Positions 3,857 to 60,782 of a stretch of DNA of 64,000 nt are shown here, one piece after another. The notes under the pieces are model-generated. The model saw only the letters and a list, made by a program, of their open reading frames with translations. It was not told the origin of the DNA and ran no database searches. The DNA is taken from the NCBI GenBank assembly GCA_017654855.1, contig CM030332.1, forward strand, positions 5,580,001 to 5,644,000. Reading direction: 5' to 3'. This DNA comes from Podospora anserina. Taxonomy: Eukaryota. The first letter of the stretch is position 1. Every line of letters starts with the position of its first letter. A program made the position numbers and the translations under genes.

Positions 3857-5268
3857 CTAAGCTTTCCTCCCCTTATTCTTCTGCGTCATCTTCCTAAACG
3901 CCTCTATGCCACCAGCACCAATGGGCCTGTGTTCGCTCGACCGAGCCGACCCATCGTATGTGCTGCGTGGAGCAATGGTGTAGCTGGTAGGCAGACCAGC
4001 AGGTTGCGCGCGGTTGGTCTTGGTCTCGGGCGCAAGAAGTCTCTCGCGCTCGAGCTCGAACCGGGACTTATTGCCGGCTGGTCGCTGGGTAAGCGTAATC
4101 TGGGAGCTACCCATCGCTGTTTCTTGACGCTGAGCCATTTTGGCCGCACTGTTTAAGCAGAACGTTAGTAGTGTTTTGACACAGACTATTTGGATGAATA
4201 CGTACGCAATGTCAAAGTCGCGAGTCTCGATTTGGCGTTTCTTGTAATCATCAGTCCTCTTCAGGATCGGACGACTCCATTCACCCACAAGACGCTCTGC
4301 AATGCGCTTGATGCCAATCTCGGGTCGCTTGCTTTTGGTGTAAAAGTAAACTACCTTGCCAATGCCGCTGCTGAGAAGCACCTCTTTGTTGACTGGAAGC
4401 TTGGTGAGAGCATTGAAGATGTCGCGCTGAATATTGTAAGCGGGGAGACTGCCGTCGTTCAGGGGCTCCAAGAAGTATTTGACAGCTTGGAGGAAATTGG
4501 TTTCAGGGTCGAGAATGGAATCTTGAACGGCTGTCCGGTTGAGAAGCGCTGTGACTTGAGGGAGAAGTTGAAGCTTGTGGGTGGCCGCAATGCCATCCTC
4601 ACGGGCTTTGTTGTCAGCCACACAGGCGTTTTCCATGGCGACTTTGAGATTGGCAATTTGTTCATCGATTTCGTCCTCGAGATCCTGGACATGCGAGTTA
4701 GATACAGAGACAGGGCTAACGTCACCAAGTCAACAAGAGGCAAACATACGATATCATCCTTCTTGCGTCTCCGTTTGGTAGTGGGTTTGAGAGCGGCATC
4801 CATGGCACGCTCGAGTGCCCGACGCCGCCTCTCCTCTGGTGTGAGATTCTCCTCTGGAATCTCTTCTTGCCTGGGAGCCTCCTTCTTGCCTGATCGGCGG
4901 CCCGATTCACCTGCGCGCGCCTTGCGCGGTCGACGGTCACCATCCTCGATAATGTCATTCGCATCCAGGTCGTCATCATCCTCTCCTCTTGTCCGCTTTT
5001 TTGGCCTGCGGCCTTCTTTAGGTTTCTTGTTGGTCACGCTGTCGGTGATCTTCCTTCTGCTGGCTTTAAGTCCCTTGGTAATATTCTCGTCGATGATAAT
5101 GTTGGACGTCTGTCTCTTCTCCATGTCGGGTTCATAGTGCTCGAATTCGCCTTCGTCGATTTCGGAAAGAATGTCATCGGACTCGTTGCCCGCATCACCG
5201 GCACCATCGTGCGAGTCCACGGAGGCGTCATCCCTGCGCTCCTGGGGCGGAGAGCCAGCGTCAGACAT
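3857..5268 (-). CDS. iws1: Transcription elongation factor IWS1/Spn1; introns 4685-4749 and 4149-4205
   Basis: Acidic/basic N-terminus (LTPEERRRRALERAMDAAL) plus TFIIS-N-like core (FLEPLNDGSLPAYNIQRDIF, SSGIGKVVYFY, LVGEWSRPILKRTDDY). Confidence 0.93.
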
Positions 5269-9545: not shown

Positions 9546-12307
9546 ATGGATCCAATGGACGAAGACCCGGACGGCGGCCACCCCGGGCCCTCGCTGCCAC
9601 CGCCCACGCCTGGTGGGACCAACCCTGCGCCAGCCCATAGTTCGTCGTCGGCTGCTACTCCATCGTCCGTCTCGGCGGTTGGTCCTGCTTCTCAGCACTC
9701 CGGCGTGTCCAAGAGGAGGAGAGGTCTTGGGGTTGTGACACCGAATGCTTGCACCGAATGTCGCAAGAAGCGTGCAAAGGTTTGTGCTTCCAGCTGACAA
9801 TCGTCGTCCTATAGGTCCTGGCCCCTAAGCTGACTGTTGATGTCACCACCTAGTGCGACGGGCAGAGACCATGCGGTCGATGTAAAACTCAGAAGGACGT
9901 GGAGTGTATATATGAAATCCCAGTCCGACAGTCCAAGGAGAACCTTCGAAACGAAATAGAACAGCTCCGGAAGGCGCAGCGCTGCAACGACAAGGTCTTC
10001 ACGGCTCTCACCCGAAGCGACCACTGGGAAGATGTTCTCAAGCGGCTGCGAAATGGCCAAAGTGTGGAAGACGTGTCCGAATGGCTGCATAGTCTTCACT
10101 CCCAGCAAGGGGCTGGCGCGCTTCCTCCCATCAGCCGCATCATGGGCTCTGCGGGCGTTGGTTACGGCAGCGTGCCTCCGCGCGGACTGACTGGGTTTCC
10201 CGCTGGACCGTCGACCGGTTACATGCCGTTATCTTCCGCGTACCATGCTGTTAGCCCGGTGTCCAGCCATGCCCCGTATAGCACTCAGCCTGAAGACCAC
10301 CAGAGTCCTTGGGGCGGTCATTTTTCAACCCAAAGCCACACTACCCGCAGTGATTCGGCCCCAGACATAATGAACTGGAGCTCTTCGGATACAATTCGAC
10401 CGTCTCACCACTCCCGAGTAGGGTCGTGGATTGAAAGCCAGGGCACTGCTCCTCCTAATCCTGCTCGATTTCGGGGACTGGATAGCGTCTTGATTCCCGA
10501 TTTTGAAGGGATACGGGTCCCGACGGCAACATGGACCAACATAACATCAGACCCAGCCCTTGTTCAGCATCTTCTGGCGCTGTACTTTTGCTGGGAATAT
10601 CCCACCTTTGCGTCACTGAGCAAGGAGCATTTTCTGCGGGATTTCACCGACGGCCGGCCAAGATTCTGTTCCTCCATTCTTGTTAACGCGCTGCTTGCAC
10701 TTGGGTGCAGATTCTCGAGCAAACCAAACACTCGGTCCAACCCAGATGATCCCTACACATCTGGAGATCACTTCTTCAAAGAGTGTCAGCGCCTTTTTCA
10801 TCTGGAAACTGACCACCACAGTTTAACGACCATCCAGGCCCTTGGAATAATGTCCATCAGAGAGGCCAGCTGCGGGAGGGACTCGGAAAGTTGGTATTAC
10901 GCTGGCCAGAGCATTCGTCTGGCTATTGAGATGGGGCTTCATCGTGTGGAAGACGACGGCAAAGATGACGACCTGGCTGCTGTCCAAGCAGCCACATTCT
11001 GGGGGGCGTTTGCCCTGGACCAGTAAGAAATCATTTCCACTTGTTGTTTTGCTTTTCACCCCTTTAGGAAAACTAACGTCACATTCAGCGCATGGTCTTT
11101 GGCGACTGGAACTCTGCCTCAATGCTCCTGCTTTCCACGGCTCCCGCCAAAACCCGCGATTATAGACGACATTGAGGCCTCTCTGTGGATTCCCTATACA
11201 GATGATGGTAAGGGGATCACCATACCCGGACCACCAACAACCGATGGAAGGCTAAACTCAACATCAGGCACACCGCTCGAGAGGTCGTGTGAGCAGCCCT
11301 CGAATGTACGGTCGGTCTACAAATGTTTCTGCGAGCTCAGTGAGCTTGTTCACCAATCCCTGTACATTATGCATTCCCCTGGGCGGCCACTCACCAGCAA
11401 AGACCTGCTTGCTATTTACACGCAGTATTTGGACTGGTACGATCGAATACCGGAGGTTCTCCGCCTGGGCCACAACTTCACCCCGGCGGTCTTGTTTGCC
11501 CAGTACGTTTTCTTGTTGGTCTTTTGCGTCAACTTTTGGATTCTTGCTCATACGGTTCTGTTTGGCAGCATGTACTACCATTTTGCCATTCTACTTCTGT
11601 TCCGGCCATTGATCAGGCTTCGTATCATTGGCTCGGGGGTCTCTCCCCGGGACGTGTGCTCCCAAGCATCAGACGCCATTTCTGGCCTTCTGCGCTCATA
11701 CTCGCAGCTGTACACGCTGAGACGAACACCCTCATTTGTTCCCTACTTTGTACTTACCTCGTCAATCATGCATCTTGCCATTGGAGCGGCACGGTCAGAG
11801 GAGAGAAACAGGGCCCCTGAGGCCGGTGGCGATCTTACCCAGTCTCTCAAGAGAGCGGCACAAATAGATCCCCGTGTTGCTGATGCGCTCAGCCGCGGTA
11901 TTGCTGACCTGACAGAGATGGCACCATGTCATCATTTTGCAGAACAAGCTCTCAACATTCTCCGGTTTCTTGCCAAAAAGTGGGACATCAATGTGGACAT
12001 ACAAGTTGCTAAAGGGGAAGCGAATGTGAGCGCGGAACCAGAGATGATCGATTCAGCAACTCGCCCATCAACAAGCAGCCTCAACTTTTTTGCCCCCAAC
12101 TTCGCCAAGTCTGACTTCAACTGCACGTGGGGCGAAGGCGACGGAACGGCACCCGGAACAGGGAAGGGACAAGAGGGCAAACCGGCGGGCGCCGAGAATA
12201 CATCCAGTAGCATGGAGAATCCTCTGTTCTGGCCCTTTCCAATGCAAGGCCGTCCGATGTTGGCCAGCGGGAAGGAATTGGAGGAGGCAGGCTTCGAGCT
12301 GCTGTAA
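9546..12307 (+). CDS. Zn(II)2Cys6 fungal transcription factor with Fungal_trans domain (NirA-like family); introns 9780-9853, 11023-11088, 11208-11267, 11503-11568
   Basis: Zinc cluster ACTECRKKRAK|CDGQRPCGRC...C after splicing; middle homology region HLLALYFCWEYP, TTIQALGIMSIREASCG, AIEMGLH, TFWGAFALD. Confidence 0.9.
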
Positions 12308-41961: not shown

Positions 41962-44142
41962 TTACATGTAGTGCATCATCTGCTGAGGAGCACCAGGCCG
42001 CTTCTTCTCAATGATGAGGACCGTCTCAATGAACTGCCGCTCCAAGGTGTCGCTCTTCCTTCTCCTGGCCAACAAGCTTGCCGTCTTGAGCACGTTCTTG
42101 ATCTGGCGACCATTGAGCTTGAGCTCGGAAAGCTCACTGATGTCCTTGTCAGTGAGGTTGCTCTTGATGGTCGAGTTCCGGAGGAAGTTCTTCCAGATGA
42201 TCTTGCGAGCAGACACCGTAAGATCAGGGTACTCGATGCTCACGTGGATACGCGACTGGAAGGCCGCATCGATCTCGCCGCAGCGGTTAGTCGTCAGGAA
42301 CATGATGCCCTCATAGTACTCCAAGGTCCGGAGGAAGATGGTGACGATCTTGTTGCGCTCAATCTCGTGGTTGCTGCGGGCCTCGAGGAAGACATCGCAC
42401 TCATCGAGGAGCAAGACGGCGTTCCATCTCGAGACCAACTCCAAGATGGAGTTCAGCTCCCTCTCGACCTCCCATGGATCAGACCCAAGATCACCAGAGC
42501 TCAGCATGTGAAGTGGCACCCTGAGGTTCTCCGCCACGGCCTCAGCTGTCAACGTCTTACCAACACCAGGAGGACCAGAGAGCAGGCAGATGATGCCCTT
42601 GCCCTTGCCGGCGATGATATCGTCGAAGCTGTCACCCGCGAGCTGGGCTTCGGTGAAGGACAGGATGAGCTCCTTCTGGTCGGCGGGAAGCACCAGCCTG
42701 TCAAAGGCAGTAGTGTTCCATCTCACGTCTGTGATCTGTTCCAGGAAAAAGTCGACCCACTTCTTGTACTTCAGACTGTACCCGCGGGTTCGCGAACGGC
42801 AGAGCATCTTGTAGTAGTCAGGCATGACAAATTCCTCGGACTCGATGCCGCTCTCGACCTTGTGCTTGTTGAAGCGCTCGATGTCGGTAGCGTTGAAGTC
42901 ATTGAGGTACCTCACCCGCCAAGGGCTGAAGCGGTTGAAGCTTTCGATATCCACCACGATTCTCCCAGTAATCTGGATGTCGACCTCGTTGCCTTCTCTG
43001 TTCCAAGTAATGGCGCGTCCAGAGTATTCCCTATAGTGGTGACCAGCCAGCTTCTCGAAGATGGTTCCACGCTTGAGAAGCTGGGCGGTGATCTCCTCTT
43101 TCTTCTCGTGGAAGTGGAAGGGGTAAACCTTGAGACCGGTGATCTTCTTAGTGCCGAGGAATTCAGGGATGTTGATGGCCTCCTGGTAGCGGCCGAATTC
43201 CTTGCCGCCATAGTCGACACAGTCGCAACGGACCTGAAGGAACTTGCCGCAGTTGTTGGCCATGTACTCGGTCTCTACCATCTCGAAGCCGGACATGGGA
43301 CCGAGGTAGGCAGAGAGGACAATGGTTCCGGGCTGGAAGATCATCCACAGATCCTTGAAGCAGACAACACCATTCTTGACATAGTCCTGGAAAGTCTTGA
43401 TGTTGTCGCCGATCTCGTAGTTGAGGATGTCGTAGAGGATCTTCATGTGCTCCTTGGTCTTCTCCTCGAGGTCGGGCTTCTCCATGTACTTGGTGAACTC
43501 GGCCCATCGGTGAACAAAGGGCTTGAAAGGCGCCTCAAACTCTAGCCGGCTGAGCTCGCAGGCAACACCGGGATAGTCGGCCATGATCTCGGAGAGAGCA
43601 TCGCGGAGCCATGGGCTCTGCACCACGATGCTGTGCGCCTCCAGCTTCTTGCGGCTGTCCTGACTCTTCATGTTGCGGACAACGACAGCGTAGGTGGCCG
43701 TCTCCTCATTCTCAGCAGCCTCCTCGACACCATCTGGATACTTGTCGACCCAGGTCCACTCTCCATCTTCCACTGGACCCTTGTAGATGTCCTTCCTTTG
43801 ACTGATGCTCCCTACTTGAACTTTGGGTTTCTCCTCCTCCTCCTTGTCCTCATCGCTCTTCTCCTCGTCCTTCTTCTCTTCTGTCTTTTCCCCTGTCTTG
43901 TCCTCTTCCTTCTTGTCTTCCTTCTTGTCTTCCTTCTTGTCTTCCTTGTTCTCCTCTGTCTTCTCCTCCTTCTTCTCCTCCTCCTTCTTCTCCTCCTTCT
44001 TCTCCTCCTTCTTCACCTCTGCTTGCTCCGTCTTCGACTTGTCGGCGGCGGTGGACCCGGAGGTGAGGGAGGTAGCGGACCCACTCTTTGCCGATTTCTC
44101 GGCGGCGCTCTTCTTGGAGCGGCGGGGCCAGCAACGAACCAT
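41962..44142 (-). CDS. Fungal AAA+ ATPase with a K/E-rich N-terminal tail
   Basis: Walker A GPPGVGKT, Walker B LLLDECDVF, sensor FLTTNR, Arg finger AFQSRI, LNGRQIKN; single exon. Confidence 0.92.
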   Translation of the reverse strand: MVRCWPRRSKKSAAEKSAKSGSATSLTSGSTAADKSKTEQAEVKKEEKKEEKKEEEKKEEKTEENKEDKKEDKKEDKKEEDKTGEKTEEKKDEEKSDEDKEEEEKPKVQVGSISQRKDIYKGPVEDGEWTWVDKYPDGVEEAAENEETATYAVVVRNMKSQDSRKKLEAHSIVVQSPWLRDALSEIMADYPGVACELSRLEFEAPFKPFVHRWAEFTKYMEKPDLEEKTKEHMKILYDILNYEIGDNIKTFQDYVKNGVVCFKDLWMIFQPGTIVLSAYLGPMSGFEMVETEYMANNCGKFLQVRCDCVDYGGKEFGRYQEAINIPEFLGTKKITGLKVYPFHFHEKKEEITAQLLKRGTIFEKLAGHHYREYSGRAITWNREGNEVDIQITGRIVVDIESFNRFSPWRVRYLNDFNATDIERFNKHKVESGIESEEFVMPDYYKMLCRSRTRGYSLKYKKWVDFFLEQITDVRWNTTAFDRLVLPADQKELILSFTEAQLAGDSFDDIIAGKGKGIICLLSGPPGVGKTLTAEAVAENLRVPLHMLSSGDLGSDPWEVERELNSILELVSRWNAVLLLDECDVFLEARSNHEIERNKIVTIFLRTLEYYEGIMFLTTNRCGEIDAAFQSRIHVSIEYPDLTVSARKIIWKNFLRNSTIKSNLTDKDISELSELKLNGRQIKNVLKTASLLARRRKSDTLERQFIETVLIIEKKRPGAPQQMMHYM
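43825..44015 (-). repeat. Degenerate 12-nt tandem repeat encoding KKEE/KKED units
   Basis: Repeated ttcttctcctcc / ttcttgtcttcc units on the + strand. Confidence 0.8.
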
Positions 44143-57361: not shown

Positions 57362-58408
57362 CGCGTCGGAGGCGGGGAGGTGGGTTCTGGTGAGTAACGC
57401 AAAGTATTATAGCTGTCCGAAACTTGTAGAATTATGGTAAAAAGAGGGTGCCAAAAAATACAAGTGTTTGAGTAGTAGAGTGCGAAAACGAAGAAAGCCA
57501 ATGATGTGTGTTGTTGATCGAGGATTTGGCAATCAAGAAGAAGGTTGCTGGTAACCCAAAGAGCTCTCGACCAGGATCCCCGGCAGGCTTGTTTGCGACA
57601 GGATCGGTACGTACCTCTGTGGGGGACTTGCACCCCGCAACTGCATATTCCTGCATCAATAAACATCAGGGGCTCGATCATTCAGGGTCACTGACACGCA
57701 GAGAGAAGAGGATGCTCAGAATTAAAGCAACAGGTATTATTTTTGGTGTAATTATTTTTGGTCACCGCCGTTCTTTAAACCCCCTGTGAAAATGCAGTCC
57801 GGAATCCGTACCTTACAAGACCAACACCCAAATCGGGAAATATGTACCAACGCTTAAAGGGATAAGTAAATACTCGACTCCAGAATAATAGCAATCAGAA
57901 ATCCCTGGGTTGACCAATCCTCGTCTATAACCGAGCCAAACATAACCTCTTTTGCCCGTATGCAACCCGAGCAGGCAGAAATACTCTGTAACTGAATAGG
58001 GCCGCCGCAAACCCGACGATAGCTCAACCTGATAACTCAACCTCAAGAACGCCCAGTTGTCTTCCTCGCACTGATTCTATTCATGGCAGATCGACGGAGG
58101 AACTCTCCCAGTTCCAGCTTGTCAGCATTCTCTATTTCGGTGACACAAGAAGAATCCGAGGGTGGTTTCCTATTTTCTTGACGATTGGGATGCAGCCCCA
58201 AACGAGCTGTGAATGGACGAGAAGTGGCGCCTGGGTTAGCTGAGGTATTCTTGACTCGAGTTCGGAGCGGAGAATAGCTGAGCAGAAGATCAGTGTTCTG
58301 ATCCACGAGAGACTGAGCTGGATTTTCGGCACCTGAGTCGTCCACAGTTGAGATGATGATGCTTGGGGTGGCAGGGGATGGGGAATCGTTTGGGTGAGCA
58401 GGCTCCTC

Positions 58409-59527
58409 CTAATCGGCACTACTACCCGGCGCCCCTCCTCTCCAAAGACCATAGAACCCCTCGCAGTTCTTCCACATTTTGATGGTTCCATCCTCGGACC
58501 CTGTGGCATACAGGTTTCCATCTGGAGAGAAAGCAATGGACCAGATGGGACCGTGGTGACCCTTGTGGACATCCAGCTCCTTGCCATCCTCCCAGCTGTA
58601 AACATGCGCCCAGGTTCCAGGTTCTTCTCCCACCACAAACTTCCTGCCTTTAAGATCCAGGCCCACACTAGCAATGCCATGGGACAGCTTGAACTGCTTG
58701 AGCTCATCTTGTGCCTTCAGCCCGCCCCAAAAGCAGGCGGTCTTGCCAGCAGCAACCGCAAGCACGGGCTGACCACCGCCAATATCAGTGGGGGAGCTGT
58801 GCGATGGCGCAAGAGAGACAAGTTCGCAAGACTTGATCTCGGCTTCGAGTTTGATGGCACGTGTGCACTGCCTGGTAGGCAAATCAAACCATCGAAGCGT
58901 GTCTCCCGAGGCCGTAATCAGCACGCTGGGGTCCTTGGCCCAGACAATAAACTTGATGGGCTGTGTATGCACACCTTCGCCGATTTCAAACGCTTGGGAA
59001 GTCGGGATAGTAACCGGGCTAGCGGCGCCCTCGGACGTTGGTGGCTGCTCCTGCAAGTCAAAGATGCGGAGCTTCTTCTCGAAGCCTCCGGTGGCAAGCA
59101 TCCTGGACTGGTCGAAGGGGTAGGCAACGGCGCGGACGATATGATCATGCTGAAGAACATACAGCAGCTCGCCGGTATGTGTATCCCAGACCTTGGCGGT
59201 AAAGTCTGCAGAGGCAGTTGCGGCAGTGGTGGCATCTGGGCTGAGTCTACCTTGCCATACCGCACCCTTGTGGCCAAGGAAGGTACCTATCCAGTCGCCG
59301 GTCTGTCCATCACGAAGCATGGGGTTACCATCTGAGAAAGAAGCAAGTTGTTAGTCCTTTGTTGATCAGATGAGAGGAGACAGGATGAACTAACCCTTGC
59401 AGGCAGAAATCATGTAGTAAATGTCCTGATTTTCCAACGGAGAGAAGCTGATATGGGGAACTGGGCGCGAGTGACCGTGGCAGGTCAACGGGACACATGA
59501 TGGACGGGGGGTCGAAGCGTCACCCAT
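58409..59527 (-). CDS. STRAP: WD40 serine-threonine kinase receptor-associated protein (STRAP/UNRIP); intron ~59332-59394
   Basis: PLTCHGHSRPV, ISACK|DGNPMLRDGQTGDWIGTFLGHKGAVW, ASADFTAKVWD, KGHHGPIWS..FSPDG..YATGSEDGTIKMW. Confidence 0.93.
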
Positions 59528-60782
59528 TTTGAGAGGCTCGGGTATGGAGTATCGAGATGATGGTTATGGGAGAGGAGTCGTCAAGCGGAGGATGAGTTGA
59601 GTTGGGCAGCGAGGAAAAGTGCAGAGTTTGGCGAGCGAAGAGGTACAAAGCCGAATGGGTAGGGCAAACCGATGACCGATGGACAAAGTTGAGAAGATAT
59701 TTCTCTTTTTGTGGGAGACGGTGGGAATCTAGAGGCGAAACACAAGCGACGAAAGAAAAATGAGCGAAAAAGAGTCGTAACAGGTCGTCAGAAAAAATCG
59801 TTAAGGAATCGTGAGATTAGGAGGGCAGGATGGTTGCCTCCCGCAGAGAGCCAAATTTTGCGGTGGACGGGGAAAGATCAATGTCGACTCTGCGACGACA
59901 TGGAAACCCTCTTTGCGACGTCTGCTCGCTGTTGGGCGGGGTGTCCGGTGCCAAGACCCGCGGCCGTACCCCTCGTTGATCTGGGCGTTCAAGTCAGGGG
60001 CTGTCACTCCCCCGCAGCAGTCAGATCGATGGTGCAAGGGCAACACAACGTTGTGTGAACAATTGGACGTGAAGTGGCGGCAAGCATAAGGTCAGGTAGG
60101 TTTACGACGGGAAGCAACAGCTCAGTTTGGCTTTCAGCCAATCTGCAAGTATGGCTGGTGTCCTCCAGCAACATTACGACATCAGAGACATCAGCGAGCA
60201 TCAGAGGATCGCTCGGCAACCATCCTGGCTCTAACCTTATCTGACTTCCTAGGTACCTGGAAGACTATGAATATGGAACATAGTCTTGTAGACATCCCAA
60301 CAAAACCCTGAAACCTACAAGGGCCCATATATATGTAGATATTGCTATGATGAGACGAAAGAAAAAACATGCCTCCTTGTTCTGCATGTAGGCCACCTCA
60401 TGATATTGAAGCCTGACAGATATGGAGCTCCAAGAAGGCCCGTGCTGGAGATGGGAGCTTCCCCTGGGACCCGTCACCCCATCCGCAGCCACGCCGCTGT
60501 TCAACCCCTCCAGGAGCAACCAGCTTGCGGACTTTGGTCTTCCAACCATTTCCATTCCCACTATTCACTGTTAGCCTTACAAATCGGCAGCTCCATTACT
60601 CGAGTTTCCCAGTCAATCTTTTTTCATAAACCATCTCGAGTTATCGCAGGAGCTGCATCGACAACCAGCCTCGCGACGAACACCTGCTGCCGTCACTGCT
60701 CCACCAGCACTTTCATTGACTGACACCCATCGCTACGATACCCCGCCTACCTAAGCTCCCAGAGAGCCCAACCGAGATCGCG

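Follow-up and report, generated by a model that had tools for sequence, protein, structure and literature searches.

A class-wide UAG stop followed by a conserved open frame in the STRAP gene of Sordariomycetes points to a probably recoded, C-terminally extended isoform

The STRAP gene of Podospora anserina raises the question of whether its UAG stop codon always ends the protein. We analysed a stretch of 64,000 nucleotides (nt) from this fungus (the window; assembly GCA_017654855.1, contig CM030332.1, positions 5,580,001 to 5,644,000 of the forward strand), in which positions are counted from the first letter. The STRAP frame, on the minus strand, closes with GAT (58414-58412) and then TAG (58411-58409), and the same frame continues through 121 sense codons (58408-58046) before it meets TGA at 58045-58043. 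An earlier sequence-only reading of the window had described this TAG end and the open frame down to 58043, and both its coordinates and the predicted extension peptide, EEPAHPNDSP...KTTGRS, agree with our own. The analysis described below indicates that the 121 codons probably encode a conserved C-terminal tail, present in a longer STRAP isoform that arises when the UAG is recoded, with editing of the mRNA as the most likely route.

The gene is an orthologue of STRAP (UNRIP), a seven-bladed WD40 propeller, as judged from matches of its product to the Pfam WD40 and beta-propeller families, from its homologues, and from an AlphaFold2 (AF2) model of an orthologue in which the propeller has predicted local distance difference test (pLDDT) scores above 90. 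Of 2587 homologues found, those with names are called STRAP; the closest named one is the 351-amino-acid (aa) STRAP of Cercophora samala (97% identity), and the remaining top matches are also from Sordariales, which places the host in a lineage with sexual-stage mRNA editing. The ends of the orthologous proteins coincide: all 11 that were fetched stop at the same position, after ...G-x-x-(S/T/A)-(D/E), and the annotated stop is therefore the ancestral one for the order.

The openness of the frame in the window was compared with dinucleotide shuffles, 20000 each, of either the tail itself or the 709-nt downstream region. The frame stayed open in 445/20000 shuffles of the tail and in 107/20000 shuffles of the downstream region, corresponding to p values of 0.005-0.02, so that the naive estimate of 0.003 given earlier was somewhat too small. 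Within the window, 7 of the 82 stop-to-stop open reading frames (ORFs) of at least 150 codons precede at least 121 further open codons, a comparison that is not a clean null, as the other cases examined are in-frame introns or antisense frames.

Related loci provided a more informative comparison. Metagenome contigs were scanned with a STRAP alignment, which yielded 80 loci; in each, the C-terminal match was located and the frame was walked to its stop and then to the next in-frame stop. Nearest named proteins put 19 loci among the Sordariomycetes. The Sordariomycete-type set contained 17 distinct loci, the window and 16 from metagenomes, the duplicates L002, L008 and L027 having been dropped and L018 having no C-terminal match. 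Of the 19, the Chaetomium-like ones are L001 and L003, L005 to L009 resemble Podospora aff. communis or Lasiosphaeria, and L010 is Microdochium-like (95%); further loci have their nearest named protein in Phialemonium, Colletotrichum, Fusarium, Lomentospora, Biscogniauxia and Grosmannia. The outgroup consisted of 45 distinct loci whose identity to named Sordariomycete proteins does not exceed 63%.

The stop codon was TAG in all 17 Sordariomycete-type loci, whereas the 45 outgroup loci used TGA in 26 cases, TAG in 15 and TAA in 4. Past the TAG, the frame remained open for 42-165 codons (median 98.5) in the 12 complete Sordariomycete-type loci, and in the 5 truncated ones it was open to the end of the contig (18-131 codons). 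Outgroup frames past the stop measured 0-76 codons (median 11.5, 44 complete loci), and the outgroup proteins end at or near ...YGLWR with no homologous tail. No frameshift or early stop was found in the tails of Sordariomycete-type loci, a check that had been proposed together with the original description of the open frame. The tails of Sordariomycete-type loci were longer than outgroup post-stop frames (Mann-Whitney p 3e-8), the per-locus shuffle p values combined by Fisher's method gave 3.7e-9, and in paired tests within loci frame 0 exceeded frame 2 (p 7.6e-6) and frame 1 (p 0.0099); combined values of this kind overstate independence because the loci share phylogenetic history. If only the orders, about seven, are treated as independent, and the outgroup TAG share of one third is applied, TAG throughout would arise by chance with a probability of ~5e-4. 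As judged from this comparison of loci, the UAG and the open tail are kept across Sordariomycete-type loci, and this is not due to chance.

Several features of the tails are those expected of a translated sequence. Counted per 100 codons, stops in the three frames (0, 1 and 2) numbered 0, 1.22 and 3.99 in the tails and 0.55, 1.93 and 3.67 in the coding sequence, while in the 300 nt that follow the stop of the tail they were flat (3.95, 3.36 and 4.09); the off-frame stop pattern of the tails thus looks like that of coding sequence. Frame +1 past the stop is also stop-poor in Sordariomycete-type loci, with a median of ~40 open codons and a maximum of 159, which mirrors the pattern in the coding sequence and is not a sign of a second reading frame. 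The window tail is colinear with the tails of three other Sordariales loci, L004 (z 5.9-6.7), L009 (z 4.2-4.6) and L001 (z 3.1-3.5). When translated tails of these four loci were compared, frame 0 gave the best peptide similarity in 6/6 pairs (z 3.1-9.8), as against z 0.5-3.0 in frame 1 and 0-1.1 in frame 2 for the same pairs.

Two short motifs recur in these tails. The first, T/S-D-L-L-L-S/N-Y/F, was found once each in the window, L005 and L006 and twice in L007, and L009 has a degenerate form of it; the second, E-F-(I/L/M)-R-R-S-A-x3-I-x-A, lies near the tail end in the window, L001, L004 and L009. The codons beneath both motifs vary mostly at third positions, and do so synonymously (CGT/CGG, TTC/TTT, GCC/GCT/GCG and CTT/CTC/CTG). 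In nucleotide alignments of the closest pairs, insertions and deletions within the tails keep the frame, with a difference of 30 nt between L001 and L003 and differences of 3, 6, 2+4, 6 and 6 nt between L015 and L045. The ratio of nonsynonymous to synonymous substitution rates (dN/dS) was 0.45 and 0.26 in the tails, compared with 0.035 and 0.098 in the adjoining coding sequence, the tail values coming from only 54 and 76 codons, whose protein-guided alignment makes dN too low. Taken together, the alignments show constraint at the protein level on the putative tail within Sordariales. The C-terminally extended STRAP proposed from the window is strongly supported by the TAG and open tail in 17/17 loci, the shared motifs and the frame-keeping indels.

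The tails of L005, L006 and L007 end a few residues past the DLLLS(Y/F)-type motif and lack EFxRRSA, and the two motifs seem separable. Upstream of EFxRRSA, L001 (~4225-4260) and L009 (~4040-4075) have in common a C-T-C-x-x-C-P-x-H cluster, which is missing from the window tail and might bind metal.

To obtain a picture of the extended protein, the read-through product of L004 (Thermochaetoides-like, 499 aa) was modelled with AF2 from alignment A2. In contrast to the confidently modelled propeller (pLDDT above 90), tail residues 337-474 had pLDDT below 50, and a helix at 475-488, with pLDDT of 53-63, coincided with the second, C-terminal motif. The tail is therefore predicted to be long and disordered, with short linear motifs set within it.

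Database searches with the tail returned little. Pfam gave only a sub-threshold match (CYLD_phos_site, E 0.029), the tail was absent from all 183 candidates in the 239-762 aa size range, and a profile of 8 tails found it in none of 7999 candidates among longer proteins, the last being weak evidence. The sole tail match in 1.84 billion proteins, P0123, was rejected, being a repeat protein whose weak matches had been added together. Empty searches are expected either way, because by convention the TAG is taken as the end of the annotated protein; standard annotation, in stopping there, hides such isoforms from every protein database searched.

Transcript evidence came from contigs of four sequencing runs of unspecified stage and tissue, one per study (X15, X16, X18 and X19), out of six that were guessed to be RNA, no matching run being recorded as such. 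Each run yielded one contig of ~2.1 kb that skips exactly 59332-59394, and because this 63-nt intron is skipped the four contigs represent spliced transcripts. All four are continuous, with no other joint, from 59331 to 57715-57722, and in X18 a loose run of eight T precedes 57722 (plus strand), which represents a poly(A) trace on the mRNA strand. The STRAP mRNA thus has an unspliced 3' untranslated region (UTR) of ~690 nt that contains the entire open frame. Polyadenylation before ~58100 had been named as an outcome that would speak against a translated tail; the mRNA end near 57715-57722 lies well past 58043, and ~320 nt of 3' UTR are left beyond the extension's own stop. A 3' UTR of ~690 nt is long for a filamentous fungus. 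Among the related loci, L004 (1-1896) is an intron-less contig that reaches 715 nt past the TAG and includes the whole 144-codon tail; its protein is 99.7% identical to Thermochaetoides thermophila STRAP in a single high-scoring segment pair, and the contig is either a transcript or an intron-less gene.

The sequence around the stop was examined for features associated with editing. The pairing described in the sequence-only reading is present in the minimum free energy (MFE) fold, with UUAG in a 9-nt loop. The A of the stop falls in a hairpin loop in 12/17 Sordariomycete-type loci versus 3/15 outgroup TAG stops, and 46/129 other UAGs of the same loci provide the background (binomial p 0.0036, Fisher p 0.0054). 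The base after the UAG is G in 12 loci, A in 4 and C in 1, i.e. a purine in 16/17, and the UAG is followed by GAG, GAA or AAG in 15/17, the window reading U-A-G-G-A-G; the U at -1 is automatic for any UAG. Stop-loss editing sites in fungi show a preference for UAG, enrichment of G at +2 and of A/G at +3 and +4, and placement in hairpin loops at 62% of sites (PMC4817773). The flanks of the STRAP UAG fit this published enrichment (PMC4817773).

Several results weigh against a recoded and conserved tail, in addition to the relatedness of the loci and the bias in dN given above. The openness of the frame in the window alone is unremarkable when set across a genome's genes. The G+C content at third codon positions (GC3) of the window tail is 0.47, compared with 0.60-0.61 in the coding sequence, and most orthologous tails are likewise lower in GC3 than their own coding sequences. 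Outside Sordariales, no similarity to the window tail was detectable in L010, L011, L013, L015, L016, L022 or L045 (p 0.24-1.0). In 8/80 loci, all of them outgroup, the tblastn match overran the first stop, so that the stop listed is a later one; this leaves the Sordariomycete group untouched. The window hairpin, at -19.2 kcal/mol, is no more stable than shuffled sequences (mean -19.0, z -0.07), 84/200 of which fold as well or better, and the RNAalifold consensus of 8 Sordariales sequences (-1.11 kcal/mol, 4 pairs) had no conserved helix in the region of the stop. The argument from the hairpin is thus weaker than in the sequence-only reading. What stood of it is the pairing and the position of the stop in the loop; excess stability and a conserved helix were not found, and recurrent loop placement is the only signal. 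Finally, all four RNA contigs carry the genomic base at 58410 and none shows A>G there, contigs being assemblies that drop minority variants; the unedited base neither shows nor excludes editing.

These results fit a scheme in which one mRNA would give two products. In vegetative cells, the mRNA, with the tail lying in its ~690-nt 3' UTR, would be terminated at the UAG to give the 351-aa WD40 protein; recoding of the UAG to a sense codon would give a protein of ~473 aa. The most likely route would be sexual-stage A-to-I (adenosine-to-inosine) editing of A58410, turning UAG into UIG, which would be read as Trp, by the system of the ADAT (tRNA-acting adenosine deaminase) type known in Sordariomycetes. 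The added tail would be largely disordered and would carry the DLLLSY-type motif and, near its end, the putatively helical EF(I/L/M)RRSA..I.A motif. Sexual-stage editing has been documented in the Sordariales Neurospora, Sordaria and Chaetomium (PMC13123824, PMC5381528), and the pattern of TAG plus tail is confined to the class in which stop-loss editing has been documented (PMC11156358, PMC13123824). Of the sexual-stage edited STRAP suggested by the sequence-only reading, the extended isoform is strongly supported by the comparison of loci; that the recoding step is editing and not ribosomal readthrough, and that it is specific to the sexual stage, we infer, the four RNA contigs being unedited.

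It is also possible, though unlikely in our view, that ribosomes read through the UAG in a programmed manner with no editing, either constitutively at a low level or conditionally. The comparative evidence for a translated tail fits such readthrough equally well, and the UAG is unedited in the four RNA contigs. However, a purine after the stop, which favours efficient termination, is present in 16/17 loci, and neither of the known leaky readthrough contexts, UGA-CUAG and UAG-CAR-YYA, occurs at this stop. The tail, moreover, ends ...TTGRS and has no targeting signal resembling PTS1 (peroxisomal targeting signal type 1), and UAG plus tail is seen solely in the class for which UAG-to-UGG editing has been documented. 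The stop is also always UAG and never UGA (17/17); UGA is described as the relatively leaky stop (PMC4817773). Another view accepts translation after editing and holds that the tail has no sequence-specific role, being tolerated noise or a generic destabilising tail in which the motifs are accidental. The predicted disorder, the loss of similarity outside Sordariales and the destabilisation of green fluorescent protein (GFP) by generic stop-loss tails (PMC13123824) are all in keeping with this, but pure noise fails to predict TAG in 17/17 loci or an open frame of at least 42 codons in 12/12 complete loci, and the two motifs are kept under synonymous codon turnover with dN/dS below 1; we therefore consider it improbable as stated. 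A generic degron role remains compatible with conservation of tail length and disorder, and is a sub-case of the extended isoform that we favour.

Explanations that dispense with a translated tail fare worse. An ordinary 3' UTR in which the frame happens to be open by chance would agree with the shuffle results for the window alone, with the low GC3 and with the lack of any database protein resembling the tail; it is contradicted by the cross-species stop and tail statistics, the motifs, the indels, the frame scores and the off-frame stops, and we regard it as very improbable. Least credible of all is an alternative intron that would remove the stop and join the coding sequence to the downstream frame. 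Several loci do have GT-containing codons (GGT AGT, GGT AAC) immediately before the stop; however, the 63-nt intron is the only joint in the four RNA contigs, L004 retains an open tail while having no GT at this place (TCG AAC AAT AAC ACC GAC TAG), and in every locus the open frame starts right at the TAG, a feature for which splicing creates no need.

A further candidate, restoration of an ancestral ORF by correction of a premature stop, was rejected, as the 45 outgroup loci end at or near ...YGLWR and have short post-stop frames. Among 117 listed homologues with the GLW motif, 116 have 5-22 residues after the motif and one has 47. Since the outgroup proteins have no homologous tail, the tail is an addition and not an ancestral ORF interrupted by a stop, which matters in light of the argument made in PMC13684035. 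Editing that corrects premature stops in PUK1-like genes resembles the STRAP case in that an in-frame UAG is read as Trp with coding sequence downstream, but in these 'functional pseudogenes' the downstream sequence is ancestral coding sequence (PMC4817773, PMC13684035).

The nearest parallel among known systems is DBF2 of Fusarium graminearum and other Sordariomycetes (PMC13123824). There, too, TAG is preferred (94% in Sordariomycetes versus <37% elsewhere, compared with 17/17 for STRAP), the A is often in a hairpin loop (82% versus <34%, compared with 12/17), and the in-frame tail is disordered and longer than in other fungi, with dissimilar sequence across relatives (PMC13123824). The two cases differ in that DBF2 editing has been measured (70%) and genetically tested, while the STRAP case is known from sequence comparison, and in that the DBF2 tail is 24 aa long and of low conservation, while STRAP tails of 42-165 aa contain two motifs conserved within Sordariales (PMC13123824). 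White collar 1 of Sordaria macrospora is likewise a Sordariales gene in which UAG becomes UGG, with a long extension of 131 aa, close in length to the 121 aa here; unlike the STRAP tail so far, the white collar 1 extension has peptide evidence (PMC6794485).

A second kind of parallel is offered by peroxisomal isoforms, which in fungi reportedly arise by programmed stop-codon readthrough (Stiebler et al., 2014, as cited in PMC4817773). These resemble the STRAP case in having a conserved in-frame extension behind a canonical stop and hence a second isoform, but they depend on a leaky UGA and a short PTS1, whereas STRAP has UAG followed by a purine and a long tail without PTS1.

Stop-loss editing itself is of a known kind. 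Counts range from 323 to 403 genes in F. graminearum, protoperithecia of S. macrospora have 47 sites, and peptide evidence is published for 15 transcripts (PMC4817773, PMC13123824, PMC5381528, PMC6794485), and hundreds of sites have been catalogued in Fusarium and Neurospora. According to a 2024 review, none of the stop-loss editing sites had a reported function (PMC11156358); one case, DBF2, was worked out in 2026 (PMC13123824), which drew an immediate challenge to how general it is (PMC13684035) and then a reply (PMC13684032). STRAP was named as an edited gene in no main text found, and published supplementary site lists may already contain an orthologue; the class-wide comparative signature and the conserved motifs of STRAP appear to be new. 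As the UAG is fixed class-wide, the frame is open everywhere and two motifs are under synonymous turnover, selection would appear to act on the extended product, and STRAP, a housekeeping WD40 scaffold, offers a concrete and genetically testable example of it.

What the tail might do can be considered only in outline. It may lower the stability of STRAP in the sexual stage, by analogy with DBF2 and six other extensions tested (PMC13123824), and the conservation of the motifs suggests an additional, sequence-specific role. Candidate roles would include dosage control through a destabilising disordered tail, as in DBF2, or recruitment of partners through the motifs. More tentatively, and with a confidence that falls a little short of even, we propose a Sordariomycete-wide recoding switch, probably ancient, in which editing of the UAG in fruiting bodies would add a motif-bearing tail with a partner-binding, autoregulatory or degron function. 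If this is true, the STRAP tail would be among the very few stop-loss extensions with residue-level conservation, and would allow a clean test of the question now in dispute, whether stop-loss editing in fungi is an adaptation or an error. The features of the locus are collected in Table 1.

Table 1. Features of the STRAP locus, in positions of the window, with the basis for each
Feature	Positions	Strand	Basis
STRAP exon 1 (ATG at 59527-59525)	59395..59527	-	Joint with exon 2 in 4/4 RNA contigs; N-terminus agrees with orthologue P0003
STRAP intron, 63 nt, GT..AG (CT..AC on the plus strand)	59332..59394	-	Joint 59331-59395 in X15, X16, X18 and X19
STRAP exon 2: WD40 propeller and short Sordariomycete-type end ...GAPGSSAD	58412..59331	-	Pfam; orthologue match
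Canonical UAG stop; candidate edited A at 58410 (T on the plus strand)	58409..58411	-	Sequence; TAG in 17/17 loci
Predicted hairpin with UUAG in the loop	58392..58427	-	MFE structure, z -0.07; no conserved consensus helix
In-frame extension, 121 codons, predicted mostly disordered	58046..58408	-	Open in all orthologous loci; frame-0 similarity
Motif 1, T-D-L-L-L-S-Y-S-P, extension residues 39-47	58268..58294	-	Also in L005, L006, L007 (x2) and L009
Motif 2, E-F-L-R-R-S-A-x3-I-S-A-R-K, extension residues 102-116, predicted helix	58061..58105	-	Also in L001, L004 and L009
UGA closing the extension	58043..58045	-	Sequence
Remaining 3' UTR to the poly(A) site near 57715-57722	57715..58042	-	RNA contig ends; T run in X18

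Elsewhere in the window, long continuations past a stop were examined at 11024, 54079, 43543, 5135, 18091 and 56738, and no second stop-loss candidate was apparent among these six. The stops at 11024 (a TAA within a GTAAGA donor) and 54079 lie in apparent introns of plus-strand genes, and those at 43543 and 5135 resemble antisense frames of coding regions. In the 5' UTR of STRAP (59655-59675) the window carries CATCGGT CATCGGT in tandem, and 7 bases are missing there, at 59668, from each of the four RNA contigs; over the remaining 2 kb the contigs have no further letter differences from the window. The difference at 59668 looks like one of repeat copy number, the strain that was assembled and those that gave the RNA runs having different numbers of a 7-nt unit.

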